64,000 nucleotides of DNA from a virus (Duplodnaviria; Heunggongvirae; Uroviricota; Caudoviricetes): the IMG/VR virus record IMGVR_UViG_3300031998_000007. One strand, given 5' to 3'. Each line of letters opens with the position of its first letter. The first letter of the stretch is position 1. Below, in pieces: positions 12,963 to 55,423 of this stretch. Below the pieces are notes generated by a model that saw nothing but the letters and a program-made list of their open reading frames with translations, was not told where the DNA came from and did no database searches. The translations under genes and the position numbers were made by a program.

Positions 12963-13484
12963 ATGACCCAGCTTGTAACCGCAGGTGAAACCAAGAAGAA
13001 GGGGACCAAGACGAAGAAGTGCGCCACGCCATGGGATGCGTATTCCAGCACCCCGGGCGAACGCACTACTGTTCCGTACTATTCCGTGAAGGACTTTACC
13101 TGCACGTCCAATTTTTCCGATGCTGGCGTAGCTGCCGCAGCCAACATGGTTGCCGCGCAGGGCGATGCCGCTGCTGCGCCGATGGGCGATGCGGTCGATG
13201 ACCGCAACACTCCGGCTGGGTTGGTCATCGTGAGCAATACCGTTGACAGCCTTGCCAAGGACCATCCGAACTCGAACGCCGCTGCGGAAATCAAGAAGCT
13301 CTTCGACCGTCTCCGCGCGGATCCGTCCAGCTTCCGGGAGCCCTTCTACCAGGGTGCCGATGGCCTTGACGCCGACCCGAACGGGAGCGCGATAAGCAGC
13401 CTCGCTGCAGCATGTGAGGCTACGCTCGGCGCGTTCCGCCGTGCAACGGGTATCGACTACATGGATTTTAGGAAGAAAACCTAG
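12963..13484 (+). CDS. Hypothetical protein (MTQLVTAGETKKKG...)
   Basis: AAGGAGG RBS before ATG 12963. The stop codon lies in the CCTAG motif. Confidence 0.7.
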   Translation: MTQLVTAGETKKKGTKTKKCATPWDAYSSTPGERTTVPYYSVKDFTCTSNFSDAGVAAAANMVAAQGDAAAAPMGDAVDDRNTPAGLVIVSNTVDSLAKDHPNSNAAAEIKKLFDRLRADPSSFREPFYQGADGLDADPNGSAISSLAAACEATLGAFRRATGIDYMDFRKKT

Positions 13485-13487
13485 TTT
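13476..13487 (+). promoter_or_regulatory. AAAACCTAGTTT motif, copy 1 of 7
   Basis: Other copies at 14454, 17425, 33858, 50580, 52239 and 55386, each 23-39 nt upstream of a start codon. Confidence 0.55.
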
Positions 13488-13511
13488 ACGCCCGTATCAA
13501 GCGGGCTAGAC

Positions 13512-14462
13512 ATGAATCCATATACCATTCTCGGCGTAAAGCTCTCCGACTCCGACGAAGACATTAAGAAGGCCTACCGGCGCCTCTGCAAGGAAGCCCA
13601 CCCGGACAAGGGTGGGTCCGAGCAGCGCATGGCCGAACTCAACGAGGCCTATGCGCAGATTGGGACTCCCGAGAAGCGCAAGGAGTATGACAAGAAGCAC
13701 TCCTACATGGCGGAGTTCGAACTCTACGCATCTGTTCTCGGCACGCCGACCGTGGCAAGGAATTTCGGCAAGAAGCCCGAATCCAGGACCGCGGTCAACG
13801 GTTCTGACATCCATCTCACTGTGAATATCCCGTTTTCCGTGTTCATGCACGGGTGCTCCATGATGCCCGTGCAGTTCGAGCGCCGTTCCACCTGCCTCGA
13901 ATGTGACGGTACCGGAGCTGCCAAGGCGGCAAAGTGCAGCCAGTGCGGCGGTAACGGCAGGTATCGCGACCCGACTACCCACCGGTTCAGGAAGTGCAAC
14001 AAGTGCAACGGGACCGGCATCAACGTCATCGAGAAGTGCCCGTATTGCAATAACGGCGAGAACCGTCGCCAGATTACCCAGAACCTGATTTACAGGCCCG
14101 GCATGATGGAGACCCGCATGACCGGGAAGGGCAACGCCGGCCACTTTGGCGGCTGTAACGGCAACCTCATCGTGACCTTCAACCCGGAACTTCCCGAGAA
14201 CTGTTCCATCGTGGATGGCGTCCTTGTCGTGGATGGGCCGGAAATCTTCCCCGAGGACCTCGTTCTCGGCAAGTGGGCGGTTGTCCAGTGCGGCGACGAG
14301 ACGGTCAGAATTTGCATCCCGGCGAACAGCCAGGACACTGTCGTCGAGACGGTGACTGCCGACGGGTTGAAGATACGTGTCAAGTTCCGGCTCGCCCCGT
14401 GCAAGTCGGATGCCGAGCGGGCGGCATACGACTACCTTCGCCAGCTCCACGAGAAAACCTAG
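13512..14462 (+). CDS. dnaJ: DnaJ-family co-chaperone (J domain, Zn-finger, C-terminal domain)
   Basis: NPYTILGV...IKKAYRRL...HPDKGG J domain. Four CxxCxGxG-type repeats (CLECDGTG, CSQCGGNG, CNKCNGTG, CPYCNNGE). GSDI and GKGNAG...GNLIV C-terminal motifs. Confidence 0.9.
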   Translation: MNPYTILGVKLSDSDEDIKKAYRRLCKEAHPDKGGSEQRMAELNEAYAQIGTPEKRKEYDKKHSYMAEFELYASVLGTPTVARNFGKKPESRTAVNGSDIHLTVNIPFSVFMHGCSMMPVQFERRSTCLECDGTGAAKAAKCSQCGGNGRYRDPTTHRFRKCNKCNGTGINVIEKCPYCNNGENRRQITQNLIYRPGMMETRMTGKGNAGHFGGCNGNLIVTFNPELPENCSIVDGVLVVDGPEIFPEDLVLGKWAVVQCGDETVRICIPANSQDTVVETVTADGLKIRVKFRLAPCKSDAERAAYDYLRQLHEKT

Positions 14463-14488
14463 TTTTCATCCAAACAGGGTAAATTGTC

Positions 14489-14884
14489 ATGAACTCAGTC
14501 AAACTTACACTCGAACAGCGGTACAAACTCATCAGGTTCATCGGCCGCATCCCATGCACGATCACCGTCCGTCTCACTGTCGATGCGCTTATCGACCAGC
14601 TCGTCCTTAACGACGAGGAAAGGGCAGCCGGCTATACGGTGGAAATCGTTGACGGTGTCGCCAAGCCGAACAATACCGAGTATACCCGCGAATACACCGC
14701 GGACATGCTTGGCCCGACTCTCGAAGGTGTCCGCGATTTCGTCAAGTATCTTGATGAAATCATCAAGGAGACCAACGGCGGTTCCGAATCGTCTCGCGAA
14801 ATCCGTGACGCCCTCGCCTTGCTTCGCCCGATTTTCCCGAAGCCGGAAGGCGAAACTGACGACGCTAAGCCGGAAGGTAAGTAA
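14489..14884 (+). CDS. Hypothetical protein
   Basis: 131-aa ORF in the + strand run, downstream of a CCTAG motif. Confidence 0.65.
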   Translation: MNSVKLTLEQRYKLIRFIGRIPCTITVRLTVDALIDQLVLNDEERAAGYTVEIVDGVAKPNNTEYTREYTADMLGPTLEGVRDFVKYLDEIIKETNGGSESSREIRDALALLRPIFPKPEGETDDAKPEGK

Positions 14885-14886
14885 GG

Positions 14887-15849
14887 ATGCAGTTGCCGTC
14901 CCAGAGGATCGGCCTCACTACGGTCGACAGCACGTTCAACGTATTCATGAGCGACTATGACGGGCATGACCTGTCGTTGGAGTTCATGGACCGGTGCGCA
15001 GCAATCCGTGCGGACCGCAACCTCTGGTACACCCCGATAAAGTTCTACATAACGTCAGGGACGCTCGGCTACATCCATGCCGAACAGCTGATTGTCTATG
15101 TGGACGCCGGGACCATCTTCATCCTATCCTCGTTGCCGTCCTTTGACGGTTCCGACTACGCGCACGCCGCGCTCGGCTCCGACGGGGAACTCATGGTCAC
15201 CCGCCTGTTCAACGGCAAGTCCAGGGTCGCATCCTCGCTGGGTATCGTTCCCGACGGGACGGACATCATGACCTACGCGAAGGACTATTATACCGGGAAC
15301 GGCATAGTCACCGACGGGCAGATCAATTCCGAGCAGGTGCTGATGTTCCTCGACCAGTGGGAAGATTTCTACCACGGGAACCTCTATGTCACCGGTGGCC
15401 ACCTATACGGCGTCTATGCCGTCGATTGCAGCGTTTCCGCGGCAATCAGGTATGTCCGGGGGGACAACTCGTTCCAGTTCGCCGGCAAGGAAGTTCTCCT
15501 CGTTGGCGGCATCCCGGAAATCATGCCGCTTGGCTACCATACCAACATGTTCGGCCATACCTTCAAGGTGTGGACGGCGAACGACATCGACCGGTTCAAC
15601 CACGCGAAGCGCATCTTCGAGAGCGAATGGCTCCCGACCGACCTCTTCGACATCGACCTTGACGAGATTGCCGAGGCCTTTGCGTTGCACGCCGAGAAAA
15701 TGCGCAGGGACGACCCCACCGAGAACCTGGACGCGTTCAGCGGAGGCGGTGCGGAAGCCGCCCCTCCGGTGGTTGACGAGGGCGACGGCAACTATGACCA
15801 TCTTGTCCACCTCGGCGGAGTGGATTCCACCGAGAAGGAAAGCGAATAA
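14887..15849 (+). CDS. Hypothetical protein
   Basis: 320-aa ORF directly after the upstream stop and followed by a terminator hairpin. No family recognised. Confidence 0.7.
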   Translation: MQLPSQRIGLTTVDSTFNVFMSDYDGHDLSLEFMDRCAAIRADRNLWYTPIKFYITSGTLGYIHAEQLIVYVDAGTIFILSSLPSFDGSDYAHAALGSDGELMVTRLFNGKSRVASSLGIVPDGTDIMTYAKDYYTGNGIVTDGQINSEQVLMFLDQWEDFYHGNLYVTGGHLYGVYAVDCSVSAAIRYVRGDNSFQFAGKEVLLVGGIPEIMPLGYHTNMFGHTFKVWTANDIDRFNHAKRIFESEWLPTDLFDIDLDEIAEAFALHAEKMRRDDPTENLDAFSGGGAEAAPPVVDEGDGNYDHLVHLGGVDSTEKESE

Positions 15850-15853
15850 AGAA

Positions 15854-15880
15854 CCCCGGCGCGGAGCCGGGGCATTTTTA
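15854..15880 (+). terminator. Intrinsic terminator abutting a TATAAACTA motif (15879-15887)
   Basis: CCCCGGC-GCGGA-GCCGGGG followed by CATTTTT. Confidence 0.65.
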
Positions 15881-15913
15881 TAAACTATGGGGAAACCGCA
15901 CTGGATATTTACC

Positions 15914-17371
15914 ATGGCCGTGACGCAATACGACAAAAGTGAACTGATTACGAAGTTGAAGGGCTTCAAGGTCGTCTCAACCGAGAGCGGACCGATTGTG
16001 CCTGCGAAGGACAAGCTCATCAAGGCCATGACCAAGGGCGTCATGGAACCGATTGGCAACCAGATTTCCGAGGAATGGGACCGCCGAATTTACAGCGAGC
16101 GCAATCCGTTCTTCGATAACAAGACCCGCAAGAATGTCAAGGACATCATGCAGGAAGCCGCCGAGCAGACGGCCAACAAGGGCATCCGCCTCAACCTGGA
16201 AAGCATCGACGCCGAAAAGTCCCGCTGCCTGCTTCGCGTATCGCGTCGCGGAAAGATGTTTACCGTTGACATCCTCTACCCGAACACCAAGGGCGACATT
16301 TCCGTCATCGTGACGAACGAGAACGGGGAAATCAAGAAGCTCGAACTCGGTATCGAGAGCGAGGACTACGTCAAGAACTTCGGCAACCGCATCCTCGAAA
16401 CGATTGACGCTTTCGCCGCGGAAGATGCGCCGGCCAACATGGACGACCTTCTCTATAACGACCTCGACTCGGTGTTGCCCGAAAACAAGCCGGCGGAACC
16501 TGGGCTCAACCCGGAAACCCGCATGGTCGAGTCCGTCGGGTGGCAGCTTGGCCGCGACATGAGGGAAACACGCCGCATCCTCATGGAACAGCAGGAAGCT
16601 GGCGCGAACGGCTTTGGACCGGAAGATTTTGCCGCCGAACCGGACGACGATAACCCGAACCAGGTGGTCGCCAATGCCGAGCAGGCCAACGAACAGATGA
16701 CCGATCCGACTGCCGGCGGTGTTCAGGCCAACGATCCGACCTATACCGAGTTTGCGACGGAAAACGCTTCCATCCTGAAAAATGGCGCAACCGACCACAT
16801 GGCGGAAATCATCGCAAGCTCTGCCGAAGAAACCCCGGTTATCCTCGGCATGGACAAGCAGCTCAACGGGTTCGCCGGTATCAAGGACATGAAGGACCAG
16901 GAAATCATCAACGCGTTCGGTAAGCTCTTCGGGTTTATCAAGAATGACATGACGACCGATCCGAGCCGTCCGGTTCCAGAAAGCGAAACCGATGTCCGTC
17001 TCCCGAAAGAAAAGTGGGAAGCCGTGTTCACTGCGCTCGAAGACGAGTACACCACGCCGGACCACTTCAAGGAACAGCTCGGCAAGATCCTTCCTGAAAT
17101 GTTCGACTCCCAGGGAAGCATGCACAACCCGGATGCCGAGATGACCGCACTCCAGCTCCCGAACGACCCGTATGACGAAACGTCGGTCAAGCCGGGCGAC
17201 GAGTTCAGCGTGGCTACTCCCGCACCGGAAGGTCCCGCTGCCGGAGCTACCGACTCTGGCGTGTTCGGTTCCCTCGCGGAAGACAACGCGCTCGCGCAGG
17301 ACCAGTTCCTGCCGGACGAGAGCGAGGACACTACGTCCAGGTATGACCAGATTTTCCAGAACGTCGTCTAG
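15914..17371 (+). CDS. Acidic hypothetical protein (probable head/internal protein)
   Basis: ATG 15914 lies 27 nt downstream of TATAAACTA. Contains NLES and MVES motifs and acidic low-complexity segments. Confidence 0.7.
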   Translation: MAVTQYDKSELITKLKGFKVVSTESGPIVPAKDKLIKAMTKGVMEPIGNQISEEWDRRIYSERNPFFDNKTRKNVKDIMQEAAEQTANKGIRLNLESIDAEKSRCLLRVSRRGKMFTVDILYPNTKGDISVIVTNENGEIKKLELGIESEDYVKNFGNRILETIDAFAAEDAPANMDDLLYNDLDSVLPENKPAEPGLNPETRMVESVGWQLGRDMRETRRILMEQQEAGANGFGPEDFAAEPDDDNPNQVVANAEQANEQMTDPTAGGVQANDPTYTEFATENASILKNGATDHMAEIIASSAEETPVILGMDKQLNGFAGIKDMKDQEIINAFGKLFGFIKNDMTTDPSRPVPESETDVRLPKEKWEAVFTALEDEYTTPDHFKEQLGKILPEMFDSQGSMHNPDAEMTALQLPNDPYDETSVKPGDEFSVATPAPEGPAAGATDSGVFGSLAEDNALAQDQFLPDESEDTTSRYDQIFQNVV

Positions 17372-17395
17372 CCGACATGCTGGAATACAATTACT

Positions 17396-17420
17396 GCGGG
17401 GCCATCCGGCCCCGTTTTTT
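17396..17420 (+). terminator. Intrinsic terminator
   Basis: GCGGGGCC-ATCC-GGCCCCGT followed by a T-run. Confidence 0.75.
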
Positions 17421-17458
17421 AATGGAGAAAACCTAGTTTCTCGCCAAGAGGTTTTAAT

Positions 17459-18604
17459 ATGCAGAAGACAAACATTGAAAAGATGCTCATGTTCCCGACC
17501 AAGGAAGGGAATTTCAGACAAGCCATCGGCCTTATCAAGGAAAGCTGTTCCTATGACCCGGGTCTCTGTGTCCGAATTTCGACCCGTCCGTCCTATGACG
17601 GCTCCGTCGAAGCTACGTTCACTACCGGCAACGGCATAGTTGCCAAGGCAAGCGCGGCAAAGGGTTCCGATCCGCTTCCGCATGACGTGGTCGTTTATGC
17701 CAACGAGTTCTGCGCGGCATGCGACATCAACATGGTCGATGACAAGGATGCAATCCTTGCCGGAATGAGCTTCGTTGACGGCAAGCTGTTCGTCTTCGGG
17801 TTCCTTGCCGAGAACAGCGACGAGTTCAACTTCGAGTGCGGCCTCGAAGTGCAGCCTGCCGACAAGGTGCCGGACGTTCCGAAGTTCGACCTTGACGAAA
17901 CCCTCGTCATTGGCCAGCTTGACATGGCCATGGTCGGTGACAGCACTTACGGGTTCCCGTATATCGAAATGCACCGCAAGAACGGTGTCATCTCCTTCCG
18001 TATCGGTGACGAGCATTTCTGCATGGCCACGGTTTTCAACAACCAGGCACATGCCGCTGCGAGCGAAGACGAAAAGCCGAAGGATTTCTCCATCAGGCTC
18101 CCGTCCGTCATCTTCAACGTGCTTTCGAAGATCAAGATTGACATGGTCGTGACGATGGAACTCGACTTCACCTCGAAGCGCATCGCGGTTCGCGACGACG
18201 ACCTTTCCATCTCGTTCCCGTTCCTCGATACACAGGTCCAGACGTTCAACAATGCCGGCCTCTCAAAGTTTGCCACCATCCCGGGTTCGGGCCTGGTTCT
18301 CTCCATCGCCCACATGAAGAAAATTCTCCCGGCGAAGGAAATCGAACTCCATACTTCCGACGACAACACGATTATGGTGGTCGCAAAGACGGACCGCGTG
18401 GATTACAACTTCACTATCCGCGAGTGCGAAGTCCATGCACCGAACAAGGTGTTCAAGATGCCGTATGACATCTTCCTCCGAACCGTCATCATGGGTTCCG
18501 GCGCCAAGGTGGAATGGTCCGTTTCCGACGACGGCGAAAGCAAGTTCCTCGCGTTCTTCAACACGGGACTCATGTCTAGGAAGTGCACCTATTCCAAGGC
18601 ATAG
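17459..18604 (+). CDS. dnaN: DnaN-like (beta) sliding clamp, divergent
   Basis: 381 aa, the size of a three-domain beta clamp. Co-linear resemblance to E. coli DnaN by eye: VVVYANEFCAAC~TTVPARKFFDIC, QPADKVPDV~LPAADFPNL, SIRLPSVIFNVL~SVIVPRKGVIEL, RIAVRDDDLSISFPFLD~NIRAHVGDFIFTSKLVD. Confidence 0.55.
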   Translation: MQKTNIEKMLMFPTKEGNFRQAIGLIKESCSYDPGLCVRISTRPSYDGSVEATFTTGNGIVAKASAAKGSDPLPHDVVVYANEFCAACDINMVDDKDAILAGMSFVDGKLFVFGFLAENSDEFNFECGLEVQPADKVPDVPKFDLDETLVIGQLDMAMVGDSTYGFPYIEMHRKNGVISFRIGDEHFCMATVFNNQAHAAASEDEKPKDFSIRLPSVIFNVLSKIKIDMVVTMELDFTSKRIAVRDDDLSISFPFLDTQVQTFNNAGLSKFATIPGSGLVLSIAHMKKILPAKEIELHTSDDNTIMVVAKTDRVDYNFTIRECEVHAPNKVFKMPYDIFLRTVIMGSGAKVEWSVSDDGESKFLAFFNTGLMSRKCTYSKA

Positions 18605-18616
18605 TCTCGATTGGAC

Positions 18617-18649
18617 AAAAAGAAAGGCCTCCCGGACGGGAGGCCTTTT
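18617..18649. terminator. Bidirectional intrinsic terminator
   Basis: AAAGGCCTCCCG-GA-CGGGAGGCCTTTT between convergent genes. Confidence 0.8.
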
Positions 18650-18664
18650 GAATTTCGCGGTGCG

Positions 18665-19321
18665 CTAGGCTTTGACGGCTTCTTCTTCCTTGGTTTCTTC
18701 CAATGGAGTTTTTTCTCCGCCTGTCGGGGCCGGGGTGCCGTCCGGGGCGGAGTTCACGTTGTCCGGCGTGACATTGGGGTCGATGTCCGTGAACGTGTCG
18801 GTCCCGAACGGTTCGGAGTCGTCCGGGAGGTCGTAGTCGGCAGCTGCCGCGTCGGCGACGGAGTTCGTAAGCGCCATGTCTTCGTCGGAGAACCCGAGCG
18901 AGTTGTTGTCGATGCTGGGAGTGAAACTGTTCGCTCCGCTGGCAAACGCATCCTCGATTTCGCCCGTGCTGCCCGGAGACTTCTGTTCTTCTTCGGGGGA
19001 GAACATGGTGCTCATGCTGGAAAGCGTATCTTCGAGTTCCTGCTCCGAGTCACTTTCGGTTTCTTCCGGGGTAAGCACCTTCTTCCGGGTCTCGCTCCAC
19101 ACCTTGTCGCCGAAGCGGCAGTTGCCGTAGACGTCCATGACGATCTTGTCCGGGTTTTCCGCTGCGTCGTTCTTTTCGTCGCGTTCGGTCTGGGCGTAGA
19201 TTGATGCGACTTCGGTCTCGGGCATGCCCGATTTGCGGGACAGGTCCTGAATTGCCGGGGAAACGCCCGGATGGTAGAGTTCGGAGGGTGAAAGCTGGAT
19301 TTGGGACTCGGTAGTGTTCAT
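18665..19321 (-). CDS. Acidic hypothetical protein (MNTTESQ...)
   Basis: Probable start at 19321 rather than 19648, because TATAAACTG (19354-19346) lies 25 nt upstream and the longer version overlaps a + strand gene. Confidence 0.65.
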   Translation of the reverse strand: MNTTESQIQLSPSELYHPGVSPAIQDLSRKSGMPETEVASIYAQTERDEKNDAAENPDKIVMDVYGNCRFGDKVWSETRKKVLTPEETESDSEQELEDTLSSMSTMFSPEEEQKSPGSTGEIEDAFASGANSFTPSIDNNSLGFSDEDMALTNSVADAAAADYDLPDDSEPFGTDTFTDIDPNVTPDNVNSAPDGTPAPTGGEKTPLEETKEEEAVKA

Positions 19322-19384
19322 TGTGCCGCCGGAATTGTTCGAATACAGTTTATAGGTTCCGGGATTTGCTATAAACTGACAAGT

Positions 19385-19600: not shown

Positions 19601-19661
19601 CGGGCAAAAACGGGGACATCTTCTAAACTTAGTAAAAAGTCCAATCACCGGAGTTTACCCA

Positions 19662-20354: not shown

Positions 20355-20360
20355 CTGGAT

Positions 20361-27806: not shown

Positions 27807-30800
27807 ATGGCTACAAAGATGGGTGACCTGTGCGCCCCTGGAGTTCTGCTTTCGATCGAGGATAATTCCGCCTATGGCGAGGTTCAGAACCCGTCCGCCA
27901 TCGCCGGTATTGTTGGTTTCGCCGCAAAAGGCGAGATGAACAAGATCCTCAACATCTCGAACTCCGGCGCGATGGATGCCATACTCGGATATGGCTACAA
28001 CAATGCCAAATACAACCAGGGCCTGTATGCCGCCCGTGGCGTCATCGACAACGGTGGCGTGGTTGAGTTCGTTCGCCCTTACGGCGAAGAAATCGACAAG
28101 TCCAGCCCTTACAAGAGGGACCTCAAGTCCGATGCGTTCGTCGTGACCTACGACCGCAACGCTTTCCGGTATGATGGACAGCCGAAGAACTCTTTCCAGA
28201 TGAAGCACTTCGCGGCAACCCGCTTCAAGACCGATGCTGCCGCCGATTTCGGCGTGCGCCGCAAGATCAACAACATCGCCGAGACTGTGAAGTCCGGCAA
28301 GAACGTTGACTTCGCAGTAAGCGCCGGTGAAGAGTTCACCGACAGCAAGGCATGCCGCTGGTACGACAACGAACGCAAGAAGGCTCCGACCGACACCGTC
28401 CTCTTTGCGATCATCAACAGCGACCCGAGCAGCGCCAACCGCGCCTACGAGTCCTACGACATCGTCGACGTCCAGACCAACCTGGTCAGCAAGACGCTCA
28501 CCCTGACCCTCGGTGCCCGTCCGACCTTCTCTGTCGGCGAAAAGCTCTACTTCCCGATCACGGAAGGTGGCGCAAGCAACCAGTTCGCCAGCGCGACTGT
28601 TCTCTCCATCGACGAGTTCGACGTTTCCGTGTCCCCGGATGACAGCTCCTACCTGGAAAGCTACAACCGTCCGTCCGTTGCCTTCTATTGCAGCGACGCG
28701 ACTGCCGTTGCCGACGGCTTCGACTACCTCACGGTCAAGACTGCCGTTGCCGGTCGTGGTGCAAAGACCTTCACGGTGATGAACATTGCCGACTTCGCTG
28801 CCGGCGAACGCTTCTCCGTCAAGGATTCTCTCCCGAACGGTTCCTGCATCATCGTGAACGATGCCAACAACGGTATCATCCCGGTCCGCATCATCAACAA
28901 CGAGTTCAACTCGCTCGGTGCAATCTCCTTCAAGACCACTGACGTGGATGGCAACGCCCTCCCGGCAGGCGTGTTCCGCATTGAAAACGCTGACGGCAAC
29001 GTGACCCTCTTTGATGGCGACGTCATCACAGTGAAGTTCATCGTGTCCGCTTCTGGCACATACACCGAATACAGCACGACGACCGTCACCGTTACCAATG
29101 CTGCCAAGTATCTCTGCACCCCGAACGAAGAGCTCGACGGTTCTGGCCTCGATTCCATCGCGGTCGAATCTTCCTACATCTCCGAGTTCAGCGAAAAGGT
29201 TGACAGCGTGTTCGCCGACATCAGCGACGCAAAGAGCTGGGGCGACGTGGTCAAGACCATCGCCAAGGCATTCCGCACTTCCGCGGTCGGTTACAACAAT
29301 CGTGCAGTCGTGAACGACATTGTCACCTTCGACTTGAAGGCCAACAAGCTCAAGCTCGACACGAGCGCCGCGCTGGAATACGCTGTCGGCGATGCAGTCG
29401 CTGTCGTGCTCGGCTCCGGCACTACCACGGTGGAAACGGAAGCCGAAATCACCGAGTTCATGGAAAAGTGGCACAACCCGGTCGTTGGTACCGCCAAGAT
29501 CACGGCAATCAACGTGATGACCGGCGAAATCACCCTTGACGCCCTCCCGGAAGGCATGGACGACACTGCCGGTGAACACTTCTACCAGTTGATTGACCTC
29601 ACCGGCGCTGCAATGGATGTGTATGCAAGTGCACATACCATCGAAACCGTGCTCACCCTCGACGACACTACCTGGTCTGCGGCCAACGGCAGTGTCGAAA
29701 CCTACGGTGTCGAGTGCTCCAAGATGACCATTGCAAACACTGACTTGGACGGCAAGGTTCAGGTCGGGGATGTGCTGGCCATTACCGATGGCGACAACTC
29801 CTACATTGACCCGGATCCGCAGACGTTCACTGTGGTTGGTCTCACCGGTGGCGAGGTTATCGTCAAGGACCCGTTGAAGAAGCTCCTTGGCGAAGGCATC
29901 TCCTACACGGTCAAGTTCACCAAGAGCGTTGACATCGGCCAGTTCTTCGTGGTCGGCGCCTACTCGCTCTATGTTCCGACGGCTGCCCAGAACGCTGCCC
30001 AGTTCAGCATGACCACCCAGGGCAAGGCCCTTGCTACCGAAACCGGTGCATTGTTGGTCACCGACACCAACCTGGTGCTCGTTGCCGACTATGACGGCAA
30101 GGCCTACATCAACCCGGGTATGGGCAAGGACCAGTACATCGTCGAAAAGTCCAGCAAGTGCCTCGCAAGCGCTGAAATCGGTGCAACCTTCCTCGGCCTC
30201 GGCCTCGCTACCACGAAGTATGAGGACGTCGAGTTCACCGGCAACCCGAAGCAGGTGTATGCTCTGACTGCCGACGGCGAAAACGTCGCCCGCCTCTTCC
30301 TCAACGTGCAGTATCGCTTCAACGGAAACGTGTATGAGTTCGAAGGAACCGTTGTCCCGTATGTGCTCAACGGCCAGACCCAGCTGTCCATCGAATACGC
30401 CGCAGGCTTCGAACTTGCGGACACCGGCGTGTCGTTCCTCCTCAACGAGAGCGGCGTGCTCGACAACTTCCTGGACAACAACTCCTACGACCTGTCCCAG
30501 ACCATCTACAACGGTGTTCTCGACGGTTCAAGCACCTGCATCTCCTTCAACCCGGATGACCCGGCTATCGTGAACGACGCTGTGTGGGTTTACCAGCCTG
30601 CCAACAACATGTCCACGAGCACCCTCGCCACGGTCTGGAACCTGTTCCTCGACAAGGACGGCTCCGATGTCTCGTTCCTCGTCTCCGCGGGCACGAACAT
30701 CAACAACTTCGGCATGAAGGACATCGAAACCCTCAACACGCAGGTCATGAGCGCAATGATGACGGTTTGTGAAGCCCGTAAGGACTGCTTCGCGCTCCTC

Positions 30801-33095: not shown

Positions 33096-33869
33096 ATGGA
33101 TCAGAACTCGCAGATACAGCCGACGGACTTTTTCCACTCGTTTGACTTTACGTCGGACGGGAATGAGCCGCCTGTCGACGCCGGCCCGATTGACTTTGCC
33201 GGCATGGACGAACGTCCTACGCCCCGGGCCGCAAAACAGAAACCCAACCCGTTTGCGGTAATCGAAAGCAAGCTGCGGTTGCCTGACGGTTCTACCGAAC
33301 AGGCGCTTGCCGTGTTGAAACAGAACACGTCCAATATCGCGAAGACGGCAGCTTCCTTCCAGAACCAGGCAAACAATGTCGTCGCTGCCCAACAGCAGGT
33401 CGCCAAGGGCTATGCCAAGATTGACCCGGAACAGCTGCGTTCCGACCGTGAGCGCATCAGGTCGGAGGCGTTCGAGATGTACGAGAATGTCAAGGAGCTG
33501 TTCATGTCCATGAAGGAAACCTTCATGGGCACGGTTTCCCCTCCGCCCAACATGTGCACGGCCATCGCCACGATGGTGAACTCCGTCCAGCAGTCCCTTG
33601 ACAAGCTAATCAAGGTCGTCCAGGTGCTGCGCGAGGAAGGCGAACATTACGATGAGAAGTATGTCAAGCCCGAGGTCAAGGAGGAGGACGTCGAGAATCA
33701 GACCTACGATTTCAGCCCGACCCAGATGGCCGACCTTGTCGAACTTTGGGACAAGAAGGCCGAGGAGAAGCGCAAGGAAGACCTTGACCGGGAGTTCGCA
33801 AACCGGTCCCCCGCACAGATTACCGATGAAAGTTCGGGGGAGACGAAACTGATTGAACAGAAAACCTAG
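33096..33869 (+). CDS. gp16: Terminase small subunit (gp16-like)
   Basis: QLRSDRERIR...SPPPNMCTAIATMVNSV...YDFSPTQMADL parallels T4 gp16 DLEDDYGVVR...SPRHMEVFATLMGQM...FMGSPTELMD. Confidence 0.65.
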   Translation: MDQNSQIQPTDFFHSFDFTSDGNEPPVDAGPIDFAGMDERPTPRAAKQKPNPFAVIESKLRLPDGSTEQALAVLKQNTSNIAKTAASFQNQANNVVAAQQQVAKGYAKIDPEQLRSDRERIRSEAFEMYENVKELFMSMKETFMGTVSPPPNMCTAIATMVNSVQQSLDKLIKVVQVLREEGEHYDEKYVKPEVKEEDVENQTYDFSPTQMADLVELWDKKAEEKRKEDLDREFANRSPAQITDESSGETKLIEQKT

Positions 33870-33895
33870 TTTTCTGCCATAAATGAGGTACTACA

Positions 33896-37353: not shown

Positions 37354-38198
37354 TGGGAAAGCTCGAACCACTCGTCAAGTGGTCCGGGTCGAAGCGGTCG
37401 CAGGCCGCTGCCATCCTGGCCTCGGTAAAGGGCTCGTATAACACATACTACGAGCCTTTCTGTGGTGGCTGCTCGGTGCTCTTCTACATCCTGAATAACT
37501 GCCCGGAAAAGTTCAAGAATTACATGTGCAGCGACCTGAATGCGCCGCTCATCGAACTTTACCGTCTCGTCAAGGAGTTCCCGGATGCCATCAGGCGTAC
37601 CTATCGCCAACTGTGGACCGTGCTTAACGTGGACGGCGACCTTGAACGCAAGAAGGCGTATTTCGCGAATGTTCGTGCCTCGTTCAACGAGAGCCATGAT
37701 CCCAAGCTGCTGTTCTTCATCATGCGGACGACTACCAACGGCATGCCCCGGTACAATGCGAGGGGAGAGTTCAATAACTCGTTCCATGTGACGCGCAACG
37801 GCATGCACCCCGACACGATGGACCGCATCATAGGGGAGTGGTCGGCCAAGCTGAATGAGTTCAACGTGACATTCACTCCGTGTTCGTATCTCGACGTGAA
37901 ACCCGGGCCGGACGACTTCATGTATCTGGATCCGCCGTATGCCCACACCAAGGGGATGTATTACGGTTCAATCGACTGCGATGCGCTGTATTCATATCTC
38001 CGCACCCTGCCTTGTGACTACTGCATGAGTTTCGACGGCGAGGTCGAGGGCGAGGACTACACTGTCCATGTCCCGGAAGACATCTACGGCGAACGCCTGC
38101 TTATAGACAGCGGCGGTTCCTCGTTCCGAAGGATAATCGGTAACGGAAAGATTGTAAACGTCAAGGAAAGCCTGTACTGCCGTTTTTCACACCAGTAA
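37353..38198 (+). CDS. dam: D12-class N6-adenine DNA methyltransferase
   Basis: KWSGSK, YYEPFCGGCSV, SDLN and YLDPPY. Confidence 0.9.
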   Translation: MGKLEPLVKWSGSKRSQAAAILASVKGSYNTYYEPFCGGCSVLFYILNNCPEKFKNYMCSDLNAPLIELYRLVKEFPDAIRRTYRQLWTVLNVDGDLERKKAYFANVRASFNESHDPKLLFFIMRTTTNGMPRYNARGEFNNSFHVTRNGMHPDTMDRIIGEWSAKLNEFNVTFTPCSYLDVKPGPDDFMYLDPPYAHTKGMYYGSIDCDALYSYLRTLPCDYCMSFDGEVEGEDYTVHVPEDIYGERLLIDSGGSSFRRIIGNGKIVNVKESLYCRFSHQ

Positions 38199-49136: not shown

Positions 49137-49151
49137 AGCCCCTCCGGCCGA

Positions 49152-49862
49152 TTAGAGTTTTGCTTTCGGGACTTTGACCGCTCCGCTGTTGTCATGGAGC
49201 TTTACCGGCTTGTTTGCCGGGAACTCGCCCGTGACTACCTTCCCGTCGTTGGTATAGGTCTTCACGTTCTTCTGGTCGAAGAAGTCGAGCTTCTTTTCCT
49301 TGTTGTTGCCCCATTCCTTGCCGGGTTCCTTCACCTTGACCGCGCCGCTCTTGTCGGGTAGCGTGTTGGTCTTGCCCTGGGTCTTGAGCGGGACGCCGAG
49401 TTCTTCGGTAGTCGTCTCGGTCTTGCCGGACTTGTCGGTGACGGAAGTCTTGCGGAGAGCCTTCAACTGTTCGGCGACCTTTGCCGCGGAAACGGTCTTG
49501 CCACCGATTTCGACGGTGACTGTGCCGAACGGATCGGTTTTCGGGGAGCCGGTCTTGACAGTTTTGGCCTTGTCCTTGAGACGGCGGAGGATTGTCTGCC
49601 AGTCGGTGAGCGCATCTTCATGGAAGATGTTGTAATTCTTGCCTTGGAGGTTGGCCTTCGGGACCTTGACCGCTCCCTGCATGGAGTTCACGGTATAGGG
49701 GCCGCTGCCAAGTTTCTTTTGGCCGGGGAACCAGAACGGATCGGTAAGGTGTTCGTTGTTCGTGTTGGCTGCTTCGGATTCCTTTTTCTTGGCAGCTTCC
49801 ATCATGGCGAACACCTCGCTTTCGGTCGGCATTTCATACATTGGGAGTTTAGGTATAGCCAT
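49152..49862 (-). CDS. Lys-rich hypothetical protein with three GAVKV repeats (probable head core protein)
   Basis: GAVKVPKANL, SGAVKVKEP and SGAVKVPKAKL. TAAACTA at 49899-49893. Confidence 0.6.
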   Translation of the reverse strand: MAIPKLPMYEMPTESEVFAMMEAAKKKESEAANTNNEHLTDPFWFPGQKKLGSGPYTVNSMQGAVKVPKANLQGKNYNIFHEDALTDWQTILRRLKDKAKTVKTGSPKTDPFGTVTVEIGGKTVSAAKVAEQLKALRKTSVTDKSGKTETTTEELGVPLKTQGKTNTLPDKSGAVKVKEPGKEWGNNKEKKLDFFDQKNVKTYTNDGKVVTGEFPANKPVKLHDNSGAVKVPKAKL

Positions 49863-49924
49863 TTGCGTAACCACTTTGGTGTTTGATGTGAATAGTTTAG
49901 AAGTGGGAGGCCGAAATGCCCGGT

Positions 49925-50095
49925 TTACATGGGCTGCGCGGCGCTGGTGCCGATAGCCTCGAAGAACGCCTGGTCTGCTTTCGCGACGGCGGACTTGTAT
50001 GCGGACTCGACACAGACGTCAACAATCTCGCGGACGGCGTTGTCGTCGTCGTTGAGGATGGCGGTAATGAGCCTTTTCTGGGTCTTGTGGTCCAT
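49925..50095 (-). CDS. Prohead core protein (gp67-like), 56 aa
   Basis: Hand translation MDHKTQKRLITAILNDDDNAVREIV... resembles T4 gp67 GLIEAIKSNDLVAARKLF. AAGGAG RBS. Near the protease gene. Confidence 0.55.
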   Translation of the reverse strand: MDHKTQKRLITAILNDDDNAVREIVDVCVESAYKSAVAKADQAFFEAIGTSAAQPM

Positions 50096-50118
50096 GATTT
50101 AACTCCTTGTTCCGCACG

Positions 50119-50132
50119 TAGTTTATAAACTA
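50119..50132. promoter_or_regulatory. Perfect 14-bp palindrome TAGTTTATAAACTA: two overlapping back-to-back late-promoter motifs
   Basis: Sits between divergent genes starting at 50095 (-) and 50157 (+). Confidence 0.7.
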
Positions 50133-50156
50133 TGGGTGCAAACGAAAAGGTAAACC

Positions 50157-50588
50157 ATGGCCCGTTCAAGTATCGACATCTTTATCGAGGCGGCTTCCGA
50201 GTCGCCGAAAATAGCCAGTCTCGTCCTCGACGCACAGCGCATCAAGTTCGAGTCGGCTTCCGATGAGGCCGTGAGGCGCCTGCATGACCAGGTCGGCACG
50301 AACAAATACAAGCAGCCGGCTTCCGATATTCACGACGTGGCCAATAACGCCAACGTCGATCCGGGCAAGCAGCCCGGCGAGGAAGAGCTCGAAAACATCT
50401 TCCGTGCCGAACAACTTCCCGGCATGCGCGATAATTCCATCGCGCCCCCGCCCGTGGAGGCGCCGGTTGATGCCGGCCTCAATACTGCCGAAATCGACAC
50501 GCCCGATGCCGACGGCATCATAGACAACCCGTCGGACGACGCAATCGACGACTTTTGCTCGATGCTGGGCGGAAATTCGGGAACCTAG
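50157..50588 (+). CDS. Acidic hypothetical protein (probable prohead core)
   Basis: AAGGT RBS, immediately upstream of the protease. Stop codon lies in the CCTAG motif. Confidence 0.65.
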   Translation: MARSSIDIFIEAASESPKIASLVLDAQRIKFESASDEAVRRLHDQVGTNKYKQPASDIHDVANNANVDPGKQPGEEELENIFRAEQLPGMRDNSIAPPPVEAPVDAGLNTAEIDTPDADGIIDNPSDDAIDDFCSMLGGNSGT

Positions 50589-50626
50589 TTTCTAAACTAT
50601 CAGGCGAATCCTGAACGGACAGAAAG

Positions 50627-51373
50627 ATGCCTCAGATTTTGAAACCAACGAACTTTGTCGAGTCGCTTGACCGCCCGGTTACGGTGCAGGAACTCTCCCG
50701 CATTGGTCTTGACGGTAAGCCCCGCAAGCGCATCATTCTCAATGGTGTCTGTTTGGTGTGCGATACTATCGGCATCAACGGAAGAAAGTACCCGTTGCCG
50801 ATTATCAAGCGCGAGGTTGAATATCTCGTCCGCACTAAGGTGCCTTATGGCCGCCTTGCTGCCGAGCTGAACCACCCGCGTCTCAACAAGAAGAATATTC
50901 CTATCGACTACTCGATCATGGAGATGAACCTCTGGAAGACCTGCGCGGTCATCGAGGACCTCCATTTCGAAGGGCCGAACCTGATTTGCCGAATGGTCGT
51001 CGCGGAAGGGACGCCCGCTGGCGATTGCCTTGCTGGCCTTCTCCGCACCGGCTACCATCCGGGCTATTCTATCCGCGGTACAGGAACCGCCCACCTCATC
51101 GACCCCAAGAAGAAGGACGGGCCGGTCGAGGTCAACGAAGACTATACGCTCGTCACGGTGGACGTCGTGGGCAACCCGTCCTATGGCGAAGCGGCAATCT
51201 TCGATTCCTACATGGAGTCCGTTGCCGCAATGCAGAGCGACAAGCAGGTTCTCCTTGAATCCGTGAACTGTGCAAGAAACTTCCGCAGGGAGTTCCGCAA
51301 GAACTACAAACTCCGCACCGGTTTCAATACGTTCGACAAGAACGTGCTGATTGAAGCCCTGAGCGCTCGATAA
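50627..51373 (+). CDS. gp21: Prohead maturation protease (gp21, S80-like)
   Basis: NGRKYP, ELNHP (catalytic His), TPAG, GYSIRG (Ser-x-Arg) and DVVGNPS (Asp). Confidence 0.92.
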   Translation: MPQILKPTNFVESLDRPVTVQELSRIGLDGKPRKRIILNGVCLVCDTIGINGRKYPLPIIKREVEYLVRTKVPYGRLAAELNHPRLNKKNIPIDYSIMEMNLWKTCAVIEDLHFEGPNLICRMVVAEGTPAGDCLAGLLRTGYHPGYSIRGTGTAHLIDPKKKDGPVEVNEDYTLVTVDVVGNPSYGEAAIFDSYMESVAAMQSDKQVLLESVNCARNFRREFRKNYKLRTGFNTFDKNVLIEALSAR

Positions 51374-51387
51374 GGTGGTAATCCGAA

Positions 51388-52233
51388 ATGGTATTGAAGG
51401 ACATACTTACAGAAGAAGAAATGTCGAAGCTCCCCGAGTCTGTGGGGCCCAAGCTGGAAGCCGCGTTCGCCGCGGAGATGAATGCCGCCATAGAGTCCGA
51501 ACGCAAGAAGTCCGGCAAGAAGCTGAACACCCTTATCGAGAGCATATCCGCGAAGGCCGAGAGCAAGATTGACCAGGCCATTACCGAGAGCGTGGACACC
51601 ATGCGCGGCAATGCCCTTACCGACAAGATGTACAAGCTGGTCCATGACATGGCCGCCCTCCTCGAAAGCGCCGGCATCCCGGTTTCCGAGGACACGAAGC
51701 GCTTGAAGGCGGAGCTTGCCCAGTGCAACATCAACTTGAAGAAGGCCTATGCCGAACGCGAGCACGTAAAGCAGGAACTCAACGACCAGCAGAAGAAGAA
51801 CTTCATCTACAAGTCCGTCCAGGGCATGCGCCCGGAAGTCGTAGATGCCGTGATGAACCACTTCATCAACTTCGACATCCGCGAAATCACTTCCGAGGCC
51901 ATTTCCGACTTCCTGCATGGCAAGAGCGGCACGTACATGATGGACGTTGACCCGGAAGCGAACGGCGATCTTGACATGGACAAGGTCAACAGCGCACTCA
52001 ACGACATTGACCATGCCTTCGAGCTCGACAACCCGAAATATCCGTCCCGCGAGAACGCGCCGATTGAATATTCCCGCGGTGCCAAGGCGAGTCCGATGAA
52101 GTATGACCTTCATACCCCGAACGTCTCCTACGGTCTCGGCGAGGCTGCGGACACCATGCCGCACGGCATCGACCCGGACGTCGCGAGCGCAATCTCCCAG
52201 ATGAGCGGCTTGGGTAGCATGGGATTCGTCTAA
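51388..52233 (+). CDS. gp22: Prohead scaffolding protein (gp22-like)
   Basis: Follows gp21. Coiled-coil protein beginning LKDILTEEE...LEAAF with many xxES sites. Confidence 0.7.
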   Translation: MVLKDILTEEEMSKLPESVGPKLEAAFAAEMNAAIESERKKSGKKLNTLIESISAKAESKIDQAITESVDTMRGNALTDKMYKLVHDMAALLESAGIPVSEDTKRLKAELAQCNINLKKAYAEREHVKQELNDQQKKNFIYKSVQGMRPEVVDAVMNHFINFDIREITSEAISDFLHGKSGTYMMDVDPEANGDLDMDKVNSALNDIDHAFELDNPKYPSRENAPIEYSRGAKASPMKYDLHTPNVSYGLGEAADTMPHGIDPDVASAISQMSGLGSMGFV

Positions 52234-52276
52234 TCGCGGTGAAACCTAGTTTCACGCCGTAAAGACGAGGTAAACC

Positions 52277-52984
52277 ATGGCTTCAAAAGCATTTGCTCAT
52301 CGCCCGGGCGCTTTCGCCCCTACTGCCCGCACACAGCAGACACAACAGTCCGCTTTCATCCAGCCCCAACCGGCACAGCCGGTCTATCAGCCGCAGCTTC
52401 AACCGGCACCGCAGGTCCAACCTGCACCCCAGGCCATTCCTGGGTTTGCTGCGCAGGCTGCACAGCCCCTGGGCCCGGTTCCTGAATTTGGGACCGAGGC
52501 ATACTACCAATACCAGCAGCAGGCACAGGCTGCCGGCTATCACCTGAACCAGGGTGCCGCCAACGAACAGGAAGCATATCGCCAGCGCCAGGCATACATG
52601 GACAACTTGAAGGCCCAGTATGACCAGGATAACGACTGCGCCAAGTTCAACATGACGACCGAAGAGGCCCAGGAGAACAAGAAGCAGCTCGACCAGATGA
52701 TCGACATCCTCAAGTCGGACGAGACCATGATGTCGTCCAAGCCGATGCTCGACACAATCGACAAGTTCCGCTGGATGATTTCCCAGGTCGTGACCAGCAT
52801 GCGCAGTCCCGAACTATGGATTCCCGAAATGTATGTCAGCAACCCGAAGTATGTCGACGGCTACCGTGCCGCGGGCAAGGCTTTGGCTGACGCAATCGAA
52901 AAGTATTCCAGTAAACTTACGTTGATGCAGAACAAGCCGCAGCAACAGCAACCACAACAGCAAGCGCAGCAGCCGACACAGTAA
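52277..52984 (+). CDS. Gln-rich hypothetical protein
   Basis: GAGG RBS and CCTAG motif upstream. Q/P/Y-rich N-terminus, helical core and poly-Q C-terminus. Confidence 0.7.
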   Translation: MASKAFAHRPGAFAPTARTQQTQQSAFIQPQPAQPVYQPQLQPAPQVQPAPQAIPGFAAQAAQPLGPVPEFGTEAYYQYQQQAQAAGYHLNQGAANEQEAYRQRQAYMDNLKAQYDQDNDCAKFNMTTEEAQENKKQLDQMIDILKSDETMMSSKPMLDTIDKFRWMISQVVTSMRSPELWIPEMYVSNPKYVDGYRAAGKALADAIEKYSSKLTLMQNKPQQQQPQQQAQQPTQ

Positions 52985-52985
52985 C

Positions 52986-55382
52986 ATGGAAAAGTTCACC
53001 CTCACCAGCACAGTTTTCAAGGCGGACGGAAATACCCCGCTCGCAATCGGAGTAATCGTCCCTGACGAAGAACAGGTGAGGGAAATCCTCGAAGCCGAAC
53101 TCGACACCGAGACGGATCTTTTCGAGCTGGCCAAGGTCGGCGAGGGGGTCTGGGAACTCCGGTATCTCGGTGGTGCCGAAATGCCGGACCCGAATGTCGC
53201 GTTCGACCTCGAAGTCCTGATTGAGTATATCGCAATCAACGGCCAGCGCATGCGTGCGCTTCCCAAGTTCCGCGTGTTCGGCACTACGGGTGCGCAGTGC
53301 CTCCCGGAAATCCACCACATCGAAAATCTTGCAAGCCGTGTAGGCGAGGTTGCCGAGGTTGTGCTTCACTGTCATAATCTGACGGAAGCGAACGTCGCGA
53401 ACCTTGCCGTCTTTTTGTATGCGGACGGAAATTGCATCCGCATCGCCCCGGAAGACATCCAGTATGAGGGCCTTTCCGACGAGGCTTGTTCGACTGCGGA
53501 CCAGACCGCGACGGTCATCCTCACGCCGGACATGTTCGGTAGCGAGGAGGCATGTGCTACCTATTCAATCTATCTCGGGTATGGCGATACTTGCGCCAAT
53601 GCGACCTTGCTCGAAAATTCCGCGACGACCAGGAACCTGTCACTAATCAGGTATAAGTTCGACGAGGCAAACGAGCCGGCAACGAGCAACAGCGATTACA
53701 GCGGCGAGGGGAACTGCTGGTTTACCAGCCCGATTTCCCTTACTACTTCCGAAGTGGGGACTGTGGCCAATGACGTTTCTACCGGCGCCGGTGACGGCTT
53801 CGGGAGCGAAATCTATGTGAAGGGCATCAGCTATGATTGCCCGTGTGAAAATATCAAGTATTACTACGTCCGCCTGATTTACAATACCCGTCTCGACTAC
53901 CGCAAGGGCGAGATGACGCTTGATGGCGTTTCCCTTCGCGAGGGCGACATCGTGTGGCTTGCCGCGCAGTTCGACGGGACGGATGGCCTCTGGGAAGTCA
54001 GGAAGGACGACTGGCAGGGTCTTGGGGAACCGGTGTATGGCGAAGGTGCGAACCCGTGCTTTGCAATCAATCCCCCGTTGCCGGTTGACTGCGGCGTGTT
54101 CATCGATCCGGGTGTCCGCGTGGCCGAGCCCGTCAGGACGGTTTGCTCCGACGATGTCCCTGTCAAGAACGGATCGCAGACCGTGTGCGGCGTTGCCGTT
54201 AAGCCGGGCGACCTTGTTGTCCTTACCAACCAGGTATGCGAACCGGGCGAGAACTGCGATGGCCTATGGCGCGTTACGTGCGGGGACTGGGAGTTCCTCG
54301 GGAACGACTTTGAAATCAGCGGGAATACGGTTGACCTCAGCCGTGCCGTCACCGTGCAGACCGACATCGACTTCTGCAAGTGCGGCGGTATTTTCCACAT
54401 CGACTATTACTACCTCAACTCGTCATGCTACCTCAACCATGCCCGCAGGACCGTCAAGGTCATGTGCGGTGGCGCATCGGTCGTCCCCAACGGCGAACGC
54501 CAGGTAATCATCACCGATTACAAGATTAGCGACGGCGCGAATGACGAGCTTATTAAGGCGATTTCCGGGACACCGGGCGATCCGGTCCTGGACGACTGCG
54601 TCCTCGTTGACGAGAACTACGAACGCAAGTTCTCCATGGAGACTACGGAAATCCGCAAGGAATGTTCCTATACCGAGGGCGACGTTTCCCCGGACTGTCG
54701 CGCATATTGCGACTGCGAGCGGCATTACACGGTCAAGATGACCGACGATTATTCGACAAGCTCCGACACGAACGGGTTTACGATTGCGTTCTGGCAGCGT
54801 CGCGACGACGGGTGGCACCTGTATGGCTACGTCGGGACGGGCAACATCCGCATCGGCATGGAATACTACGTGATGCACCTCAAGAAGACCGGTGCTGCCG
54901 TGGCGGACGATGTCGAATACAACCGGGAAGTTACCGTGGTCGAGCTGGACGGGAACGGCAATACTGTCAAGGATGCCAACGGGCAGGCAATCGAGCACAC
55001 TACGCATGACGCGTGGTTCATCCCCCATGCTGTCCCGGAAGAAATCTACCCCGAGGATTCCGAGAACACCCGCAAGACCAAGATGGCCTACAACCGGAGC
55101 CTCGAAAACATTCTTGCCGACGGCTTCGGGCTCGTTGACGACAACTGGTCGTTCGCGGTCCGCGACGGCTACGGTGAGAAGGTCCCGATGGAATATACTT
55201 CCATCCTCGGCCCGGACAGCCTCTACGACAACTGGCGAATCACGGACAGCACCAAGTTCCTCTGCAACCGGACTGACGACGGCATCGTCGGCATGCGCGG
55301 TGTGTGGGGTTTCCGGTATTACAAGACCGCGATGTCCGCTGCCGACTTTGCCAAGATGTATAACTCGGCAGCCTGCCACTAG
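52986..55382 (+). CDS. Cys-rich virion appendage/tail-fibre-like protein
   Basis: Two copies of L..GD.V.L..Q....GLW.V...W (about 53934 and 54198), a motif typical of phage fibre proteins. Many Cys residues. Confidence 0.6.
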   Translation: MEKFTLTSTVFKADGNTPLAIGVIVPDEEQVREILEAELDTETDLFELAKVGEGVWELRYLGGAEMPDPNVAFDLEVLIEYIAINGQRMRALPKFRVFGTTGAQCLPEIHHIENLASRVGEVAEVVLHCHNLTEANVANLAVFLYADGNCIRIAPEDIQYEGLSDEACSTADQTATVILTPDMFGSEEACATYSIYLGYGDTCANATLLENSATTRNLSLIRYKFDEANEPATSNSDYSGEGNCWFTSPISLTTSEVGTVANDVSTGAGDGFGSEIYVKGISYDCPCENIKYYYVRLIYNTRLDYRKGEMTLDGVSLREGDIVWLAAQFDGTDGLWEVRKDDWQGLGEPVYGEGANPCFAINPPLPVDCGVFIDPGVRVAEPVRTVCSDDVPVKNGSQTVCGVAVKPGDLVVLTNQVCEPGENCDGLWRVTCGDWEFLGNDFEISGNTVDLSRAVTVQTDIDFCKCGGIFHIDYYYLNSSCYLNHARRTVKVMCGGASVVPNGERQVIITDYKISDGANDELIKAISGTPGDPVLDDCVLVDENYERKFSMETTEIRKECSYTEGDVSPDCRAYCDCERHYTVKMTDDYSTSSDTNGFTIAFWQRRDDGWHLYGYVGTGNIRIGMEYYVMHLKKTGAAVADDVEYNREVTVVELDGNGNTVKDANGQAIEHTTHDAWFIPHAVPEEIYPEDSENTRKTKMAYNRSLENILADGFGLVDDNWSFAVRDGYGEKVPMEYTSILGPDSLYDNWRITDSTKFLCNRTDDGIVGMRGVWGFRYYKTAMSAADFAKMYNSAACH

Positions 55383-55423
55383 GCTAAAACCTAGTTTTCA
55401 TGCAGCAACAAGGACCACCAATT

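Follow-up and report, generated by a model that had tools for sequence, protein, structure and literature searches.

A TAGTTT box with a palindromic consensus as a probable third, non-late promoter class in a gp55-bearing rumen jumbo phage

What is the short A/T-rich repeat that recurs ahead of genes, including the gene for a gp55-like late sigma factor, in the uncultured rumen phage of IMG/VR record IMGVR_UViG_3300031998_000007? The window analyzed here is a stretch of 64,000 nucleotides (nt), bases 85376-149375 of a 213,375-bp phage contig (G000) that has a G+C content of 56%, is 93% coding according to a home-made gene call, and has a CheckV completeness of 56%, i.e., about half of the genome. 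An earlier reading made from the letters alone (the sequence-only reading) had described a hairpin with an invariant CCTAG loop in seven + strand copies and had offered several interpretations: a distinct promoter or operator, a hairpin promoter like those of phage N4, or an RNA processing or translational-coupling signal. We consider it most likely, with a probability of roughly 0.7, that the element, called the class-A box here, is a third, non-late promoter class, probably read by the host core RNA polymerase together with a 290-amino-acid (aa) phage sigma factor. We favor this reading because the box has the architecture of an early promoter, keeps a promoter-like distance to the inferred start site, stands after terminators and in divergent gaps, and retains its core, TAGTTTTC, ahead of a distant gp55.

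All seven + strand copies lie where the sequence-only reading had put them and share a word, AACCTAGTT, with the T of TAG at window positions 13482, 14460, 17434, 33867, 50586, 52247, and 55392. On the whole contig the exact word occurs 16 times, 8 times per strand, whereas our own base-composition estimate predicts ~1 copy by chance, and fewer still given the depletion of CTAG (105 copies in the contig versus ~800 estimated from base composition, ~8-fold); the full 14-mer AAAACCTAGTTTTC makes up 7 of the 16 and is absent (0 copies) from a reversed-sequence control. CCTAG is likewise below chance in the window (20 copies versus 55 expected). Since CTAG is scarce across the contig, the box retains a word that is otherwise strongly avoided. 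Three further sites, AAAACATAGTTTTA, AAAACCTATTTTTA, and AGAACATAGTTTTC, are likely variant boxes. Despite the depletion, a second CTAG lies within 25 nt of 4 of the 16 boxes (window 13506 and 55379; contig 76489 and 64024), and at box s7 an upstream ACTAGG is able to pair with CCTAGT, both in this phage and in its relative L010. The features of the window that concern the box are as follows (ORF, open reading frame).

2344..2357, + strand: probable variant box AGAACATAGTTTTC, 45 nt ahead of an ATG at 2395; a CATAG variant, matching the s4 orthologue in L174
13476..13489, + strand: class-A box s1 (AAAACCTAGTTTAC); TAG ends ORF 12927-13484; DnaJ gene start 13512; inferred start site ~13494; the orthologous place in L045 and L046 keeps the box
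14454..14467, + strand: class-A box s2 (exact 14-mer); TAG ends the DnaJ gene; 131-aa gene start 14489; inferred start site ~14472; orthologous sites in L045 and L046; fold z -3.2
17396..17421, + strand: intrinsic terminator directly upstream of s3; stem 17396-17415, 8 bp with 7 G-C pairs, then T6
17428..17441, + strand: class-A box s3 (AAAACCTAGTTTCT); 381-aa gene start 17459; inferred start site ~17446
33861..33874, + strand: class-A box s4 (exact 14-mer; 8-bp stem CAGAAAAC/GTTTTCTG); TAG ends ORF 33096-33869; 491-aa gene start 33896; fold z -4.1
50580..50593, + strand: class-A box s5 (GGAACCTAGTTTCT); TAG ends ORF 50157-50588; gp21-like protease start 50627
~50591-50600: late-type box TCTAAACTAT, after s5
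52241..52254, + strand: class-A box s6 (GAAACCTAGTTTCA; 7-bp stem GTGAAAC/GTTTCAC); 235-aa gene start 52277; fold z -2.2
55386..55399, + strand: class-A box s7 (exact 14-mer), ahead of the gp55-like late sigma gene; inferred start site ~55404
55424..56185, + strand: gp55-like late sigma gene, downstream of s7; PHROG 234 (late sigma transcription factor), E 2.8e-14; single copy on the contig

A genome-wide search placed every one of the 16 copies at a gene end or between genes, co-oriented with the flanking genes, and a start codon follows 12 to 41 nt past the T of TAG in all of them (25 to 41 nt in 13, exactly 12 nt in 3). The spacing at s5 is on the longer side (39-41 nt) because the extra late-type box intervenes. 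The TAG doubles as the stop codon of the upstream gene in the four window copies for which this had been claimed (ORF ends 13484, 14462, 33869, and 50588) and in 7 of the 16 genome-wide. Two copies (the sequence-only reading had mentioned one such case), s3 (at 17434) and s10, which lies outside the window, sit 6 to 10 nt past strong intrinsic terminators, and the terminator-then-box order of s3 is kept in L045 and L046, relatives that are ~71% identical. Two copies lie in divergent gaps, where they are the sole recognizable promoter candidates for their gene: on the strand in question, the gap contains neither an early nor a late nor a canonical sigma-70 promoter. The box itself is not an intrinsic terminator: its T run lies within the stem, no T tract follows, and terminator scans made calls upstream of s3 and s10 and not at the box.

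The products encoded downstream include DnaJ, a gp21-like prohead protease, gp55, an Hsp20-domain protein, a family-2 glycosyltransferase, and a RuvC-like resolvase, as well as proteins of 131, 381, 491, and 235 aa and several proteins of unknown function. DnaJ, the protease, and gp55 thus stand as named in the sequence-only reading, whereas its "DnaN-like clamp" and "GT-like" labels found no family or PDB sequence match; the 381-aa "clamp-like" protein in particular matched neither a family nor a PDB sequence.

The information profile of the 16 copies points to a -10 element. Counted from the T of TAG, the profile reads AAAACC-TAGTTT-(T/C)C at -6 to +7, followed by 3 free bases, C at +11 (13/16), and A at +12 (11/16). 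TAGTTT is invariant, in 16 of 16 copies and in 32 of 32 instances when relatives are included, and fits TAnnnT with T-12, A-11, and T-7. Upstream of -6 the profile carries no information; a search for a -35 element found no enriched -35-like word, and the TG of an extended -10 promoter at -15/-14 is absent, ACC standing in place of TGn. Column by column, the box nevertheless matches the early extended -10 promoter of the same phage (AAAACC-TAGTTT-TC versus TTTTGC-TATATT-TC(-nnn-nA)), so that TAGTTT would be the -10 hexamer of a promoter that has no -35, with AAAACC occupying the place of the TTTTGC (TGn extension) of early promoters. Transcription would then begin at the conserved C-A (+11/+12), ~12 nt past the T of TAG, which is the expected place of a start, ~7 nt past the hexamer.

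This geometry is echoed by three copies in which an ATG stands exactly at +12 without a Shine-Dalgarno sequence (contig 37502(-), 30431(-), and 204532(-), corresponding to L002, L001, and L044); the products beginning there are a 56-aa ORF, a 191-aa ORF, and a 9-codon mini-ORF. The mini-ORF, at 37502, reads MKRFKRGNR*, and its TGA overlaps the ATG of a 178-aa main ORF. At 30431, the N-terminal extension of the 191-aa ORF scores as coding just like the remainder (0.17 versus 0.20). The N terminus of this ORF is HNH-like (CxxxxC..HH..CxxHH), the extension supplying the CxxxxC that pairs with the later CxxHH.

Conservation separates the core of the box from its left arm. In relatives with proteins 60-72% identical, none of the orthologous places that were checked has lost the box (s1 to s3 in L045 and L046; s4 in L171, L172, and L173; s6 and s7 in L010). 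At 49-50% identity (L011 and L174), the A-run has decayed or CC has become CA, and TAGTTT is retained. In G003, a distant relative of 253 kb that was examined whole and whose gp55 is 35% identical, three words are enriched upstream of genes, those of the early and late boxes and (R)TAGTTTTC; the third word occurs at ~12 sites, 11 to 45 nt before starts and once with an ATG at +12, and the gp55 orthologue is preceded by GGAATAGTTTTCCC. These TAGTTTTC sites have no CC and no A-run and generally no stem. G003 thus has no left half-site and L011 a degenerate one, in contrast to an invariant right half. The longer word AATAGTTTT was not multi-copy in five distant relatives, where the correct core is TAGTTTTC. 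By sequence comparison, then, the family-wide element is the -10-like TAGTTTTC, and the left arm AAAAC and the hairpin are specific to this sub-clade; the core stays ahead of gp55 even where gp55 is only 35% identical. In more distant relatives a late promoter, ATAAACTAGG, stands at the s6 orthologous place.

Class A is distinct from the two other promoter classes of the phage. The early class, TTTTGCTATATTTC, is of the extended -10 type (29 TGCTATA copies), with TATATT at positions 0 to 5, TC at 6 to 7, A at +12 in 17 of 29, and several leaderless ATGs at +12. The late class, TATAAACTA, is gp55-type, with 33 copies of TATAAACT(A/G) in the correct orientation 19 to 35 nt ahead of starts. The box shares with extended -10 (TGn) sigma-70 promoters, the early class included, a single 14-nt block, TAnnnT followed by TC, a start predicted ~7 nt past the hexamer, independence of a -35 element, and frequent, presumably leaderless mRNAs; it differs in having CC for TG, an A-run for a T-run, and TAGTTT for TATATT. 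Among TAnnTTT words upstream of genes, two forms, TATATTT and TAGTTTT, dominate both in this phage and in G003, which suggests two readers rather than a single degenerate site, and no intermediates between TATATT and TAGTTT are enriched, which again argues for a different reader. Nor does the box have the form of a T4-type late box (TATAAATA-type at -10): it is without TAT and carries an extra C. Two other candidate motifs were rejected: CCCTAGTTTATA, considered as a second CTAG motif, is simply the late promoter TATAAACTAGGG read on the opposite strand, and class A read backwards as a late promoter (the two share AAACTAGG) has no TAT and would be antisense at 16 of 16 sites. Promoter repertoires vary within the phage family: in G002, an IMG/VR relative of 253 kb that is 99% complete, TGCTATATTT and the late TATAAACT are accompanied by a TGCTACATTT box, and there is no TAGTTT class.

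A candidate reader is encoded on the contig itself. The 290-aa protein at contig 169362-170234 (-) (L040:1036-1905(-)) belongs to the sigma-70 family (Sigma70_r2 and r4; PHROG 351, E 3e-34) and aligns to RpoS and RpoD across regions 2 to 4. Its stop codon is a class-A TAG, inside box s11, and its gene is preceded by a host-type promoter, TTGGAA-16-TATATT here and TTGACA-17-TGTTATATT in G003. It is <30% identical to any sigma factor in GenBank phages; its best matches are in human-gut phage contigs, Prevotella megaphages, and a T4-like cyanophage. Sigma orthologues 34-35% identical occur in G003 and G001; sigma factor and TAGTTT class are found together in G000 and G003, and G002, which has no TAGTTT class, gave a marginal sigma-like match (E 0.004). 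The resulting cascade would run from the host sigma factor to the phage sigma factor, from there to the class-A genes including gp55, and through gp55 to the late TATAAACT promoters. In this way a jumbo phage of ~430 kb, so far uncultured, would gain a three-step transcription program (host-type early, phage-sigma, and gp55 late) with named promoters per gene for each step, and a phage sigma factor family with none described would gain candidate target promoters.

Cascades of this kind are known from SPO1 (gp28, then gp33/34) and phiEco32 (gp36). There, an early phage sigma factor redirects the host core polymerase to a phage-specific promoter class, as proposed for class A; here, in contrast, a gp55 of the T4 type would take the last step, and the consensus sequences bear no relation to each other. 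T4 has three promoter classes (PMC6024815), and its middle promoters, which combine a MotA box at -30 with a sigma-70 -10, resemble class A in being non-late, in having a TAnnnT -10, in belonging to a gp55-bearing phage, and in driving the late sigma gene; they differ in that class A has no conserved -30 (TGCTT-type) box and the contig encodes no MotA or AsiA, a full sigma factor being present instead. Searches of the contig, ~half of the genome, for a beta subunit, MotA, and AsiA (PF09114 and PF09010) gave no match. Class A is probably a phage-sigma-dependent class with an unusual palindromic consensus, in a gp55-bearing jumbo phage. As far as checked, it is not a described element, as the sequence-only reading had also held: a literature search for the box 10-mers returned unrelated papers only, megablast of 4 kb against GenBank phages gave no match, and the exact 14-mer has >100 single, apparently random matches in IMG/VR, with no multi-copy contig among the matches listed.

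Several observations weigh against a sigma-dependent promoter. The 290-aa sigma factor possesses region 4, yet a -35 element is not conserved, and its link to the motif consists of co-occurrence in three genomes and the logic of the cascade. As the contig is about half of the genome, genes absent from it prove little. The start site is deduced from the sequence, and the RNA contigs that cover the region, from four sheep-rumen metatranscriptome runs, cannot show starts; they are ~96% identical across 49800-56800, spanning s5 and s6, and although some low-depth contigs break near s6 and s7 (X4, 52232/52304; X2, 55277/55416), DNA carry-over is possible, so they neither support nor refute a promoter. 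A conserved hairpin at +8 to +24 after s1 would not be contained in an RNA starting at +12. Finally, arm complementarity above control and covariation at some orthologous sites are not explained by a plain -10 element.

The hairpin after s1, between the box and the DnaJ start, is an observation in its own right. It occupies window 13490-13506 and has counterparts at ~5998-6014 in L045 and ~5957-5970 in L046, its arms being compensated across the three (GCCCG/CGGGC, CCCCG/CGGGG, and GTCCG/CGGAC). The 3' arm overlaps a G-rich, Shine-Dalgarno-like stretch, and the hairpin could control the translation of a heat-shock-type gene; with a transcription start at +12, it would be present in read-through RNA only.

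How much of the box is a hairpin at all? The stem is better drawn as AAAAC/GTTTT closing a 3-nt loop, CTA, than with the invariant CCTAG loop first proposed, and the claim that the arms differ and yet stay complementary applies to a part of the copies. Six of the 16 (s2, s3, s4, s6, s15, and s16) fold with z <= -2, down to -6.9, and the other 10 are indistinguishable from shuffles, so that only about one copy in three has a real hairpin. Each left arm pairs better with its own right arm than with those of other copies (mean 4.2 versus 3.4; permutation p ~0.0005), and stems of >=6 bp arise in 4 of 16 own-arm pairings versus 8 of 240 cross-pairings. Over the 32 instances that include relatives, 71.2% of cells are paired versus 67.4 +/- 1.7 in shuffled sets (7/500), and changes on both arms number 34 versus 23.9 in shuffles (2/500), excesses that related sequences alone can yield, as the tool itself warns; the four outermost pairs form in just 34-53% of the 32 sequences.

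Comparison of orthologous sites shows real compensation. The outer arms of s3 covary in three lineages (GAG/CTC, TT/AA, and GGC/GCC), each with a one-base bulge or a shifted loop; compensation is seen at s2 (G:C to T:A) and at s4 (CAG/CTG to CAC/GTG), and s5 and s15 hold G-U-compatible pairs. Among the s4 orthologues the stem is kept in L172, as CAC/GTG, and lost in L171; it is also lost at s6 in L010. The two strongest hairpins, of 13 and 9 bp, are at contig 37502 and 30431; both belong to the three leaderless copies, and their stems overlie or adjoin the ATG at +12. The sub-clade consensus thus includes the short inverted repeat, and the long stems are sporadic and secondary rather than defining. 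Caution is due: what looks like a hairpin results mostly from an A-run lying upstream of a T-rich -10, with a minority of long stems left unexplained; these may be selected for a second use, on DNA or on read-through RNA, or may have arisen by quasi-palindrome correction. That the inverted repeat has a function of its own is an outside chance. The -10 could lie in an extrudable hairpin gated by supercoiling or upstream transcription, in which T-12 and A-11 would be presented in the CTA triloop; or the identical 15 to 29 nt could serve on both molecules, on DNA as a promoter and in read-through RNA as a hairpin by which this RNA is marked or blocked.

Three rival explanations were considered. 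An AAAAC-CUA-GUUUU hairpin in polycistronic RNA, acting as a processing, stability, or translational-coupling signal at a fixed distance before the start, would account for the 6 hairpins that fold far better than shuffles, the compensatory arm changes at the s2, s3, and s4 orthologues, the G-U-compatible pairs, and the 7 boxes whose TAG is the upstream stop, and as most copies lie within co-directional gene strings, read-through RNA must exist. We nevertheless regard it as unlikely and as the weaker rival, given that 10 copies fold no better than shuffles, that the outer pairs are so often open, and that the part conserved family-wide is TAGTTTTC and not the stem; it also fits poorly with copies standing right after efficient-looking terminators, in divergent gaps without an upstream promoter, or before an ATG at +12 without a Shine-Dalgarno sequence. 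A dimeric DNA-binding regulator bound to the inverted repeat GAAAAC-N3-GTTTTC over otherwise weak promoters is very unlikely: the consensus does form a near-palindrome of 15 bp that keeps a fixed position ahead of genes, but its center, CTA, and its flanks are asymmetric, its orientation follows the genes strictly (16/16), and its left half, missing from G003, is degenerate in L011, whereas the right half does not vary. Complementarity of the variable outer bases is not predicted for a protein site, and the copies in divergent gaps would still require a promoter.

An N4-style promoter, extruded from supercoiled DNA and read by a phage single-subunit RNA polymerase such as the 557-aa protein encoded at window 722-2392, strikes us as most improbable. 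N4 virion RNA polymerase (vRNAP) promoters have a 5- to 7-bp stem, a 3-nt loop, and a GC-rich core centered at -11 (PMC4496689). The box comes near this geometry in its inverted repeat, in a 3-nt loop centered ~11-12 nt upstream of the inferred start, and, in some copies, in a stem of 5 to 9 bp (PMC4496689); its stem, however, is A/T-rich rather than a GC-rich heptamer and in most copies only 3 to 5 bp long, the hairpin is dispensable in G003, and the layout of the box is common to the host-type early promoter. The T7-type RNA polymerase domain PF00940 found no match on the contig, a negative of unproven sensitivity, as the control genomes gave no match either.

The 557-aa protein, which the sequence-only reading had put forward as polymerase-like (722-2395), belongs to a very large uncharacterized family (1807 metagenome matches); searches of Pfam, PHROG, and the PDB sequences gave no match, and neither did the named clusters of the ESM Atlas. 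Its AlphaFold model (pLDDT, predicted local distance difference test, 85.7) resembles family-A DNA polymerases in all of the top 50 Foldseek PDB matches and T7 RNA polymerase in none of them, with a probability of 1.0 but template modeling scores (TM) of 0.2-0.34. The family-A polymerase core would suit an N4-style reader, but a predicted fold of the DNA polymerase kind gives no support for this protein as the class-A transcriptase. It appears to have a divergent family-A polymerase fold, with motifs GRVHT, VDIxNSQ, R..K, and HDS, and its gene is preceded by an early-type box, TTTTGATATAAAC. A distinct, non-late promoter class that also serves gp55, one of the options that the sequence-only reading had raised, therefore remains the reading that architecture, geometry, placement, and conservation favor.

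Two further observations concern the neighborhood of s5 to s7. Back-to-back late promoters lie at window 50124-50131 (+) and 50127-50134 (-), between divergent genes, and in two runs the RNA contigs are interrupted between 50067 and 50160, which hints weakly at a pair of divergent transcription units. Window 52986-55382, located between gp55 and the protease block, encodes a 798-aa Cys/Trp-rich protein with 30 homologues across the phage family (31-96% identity) and only a weak match to a head-decoration PHROG.

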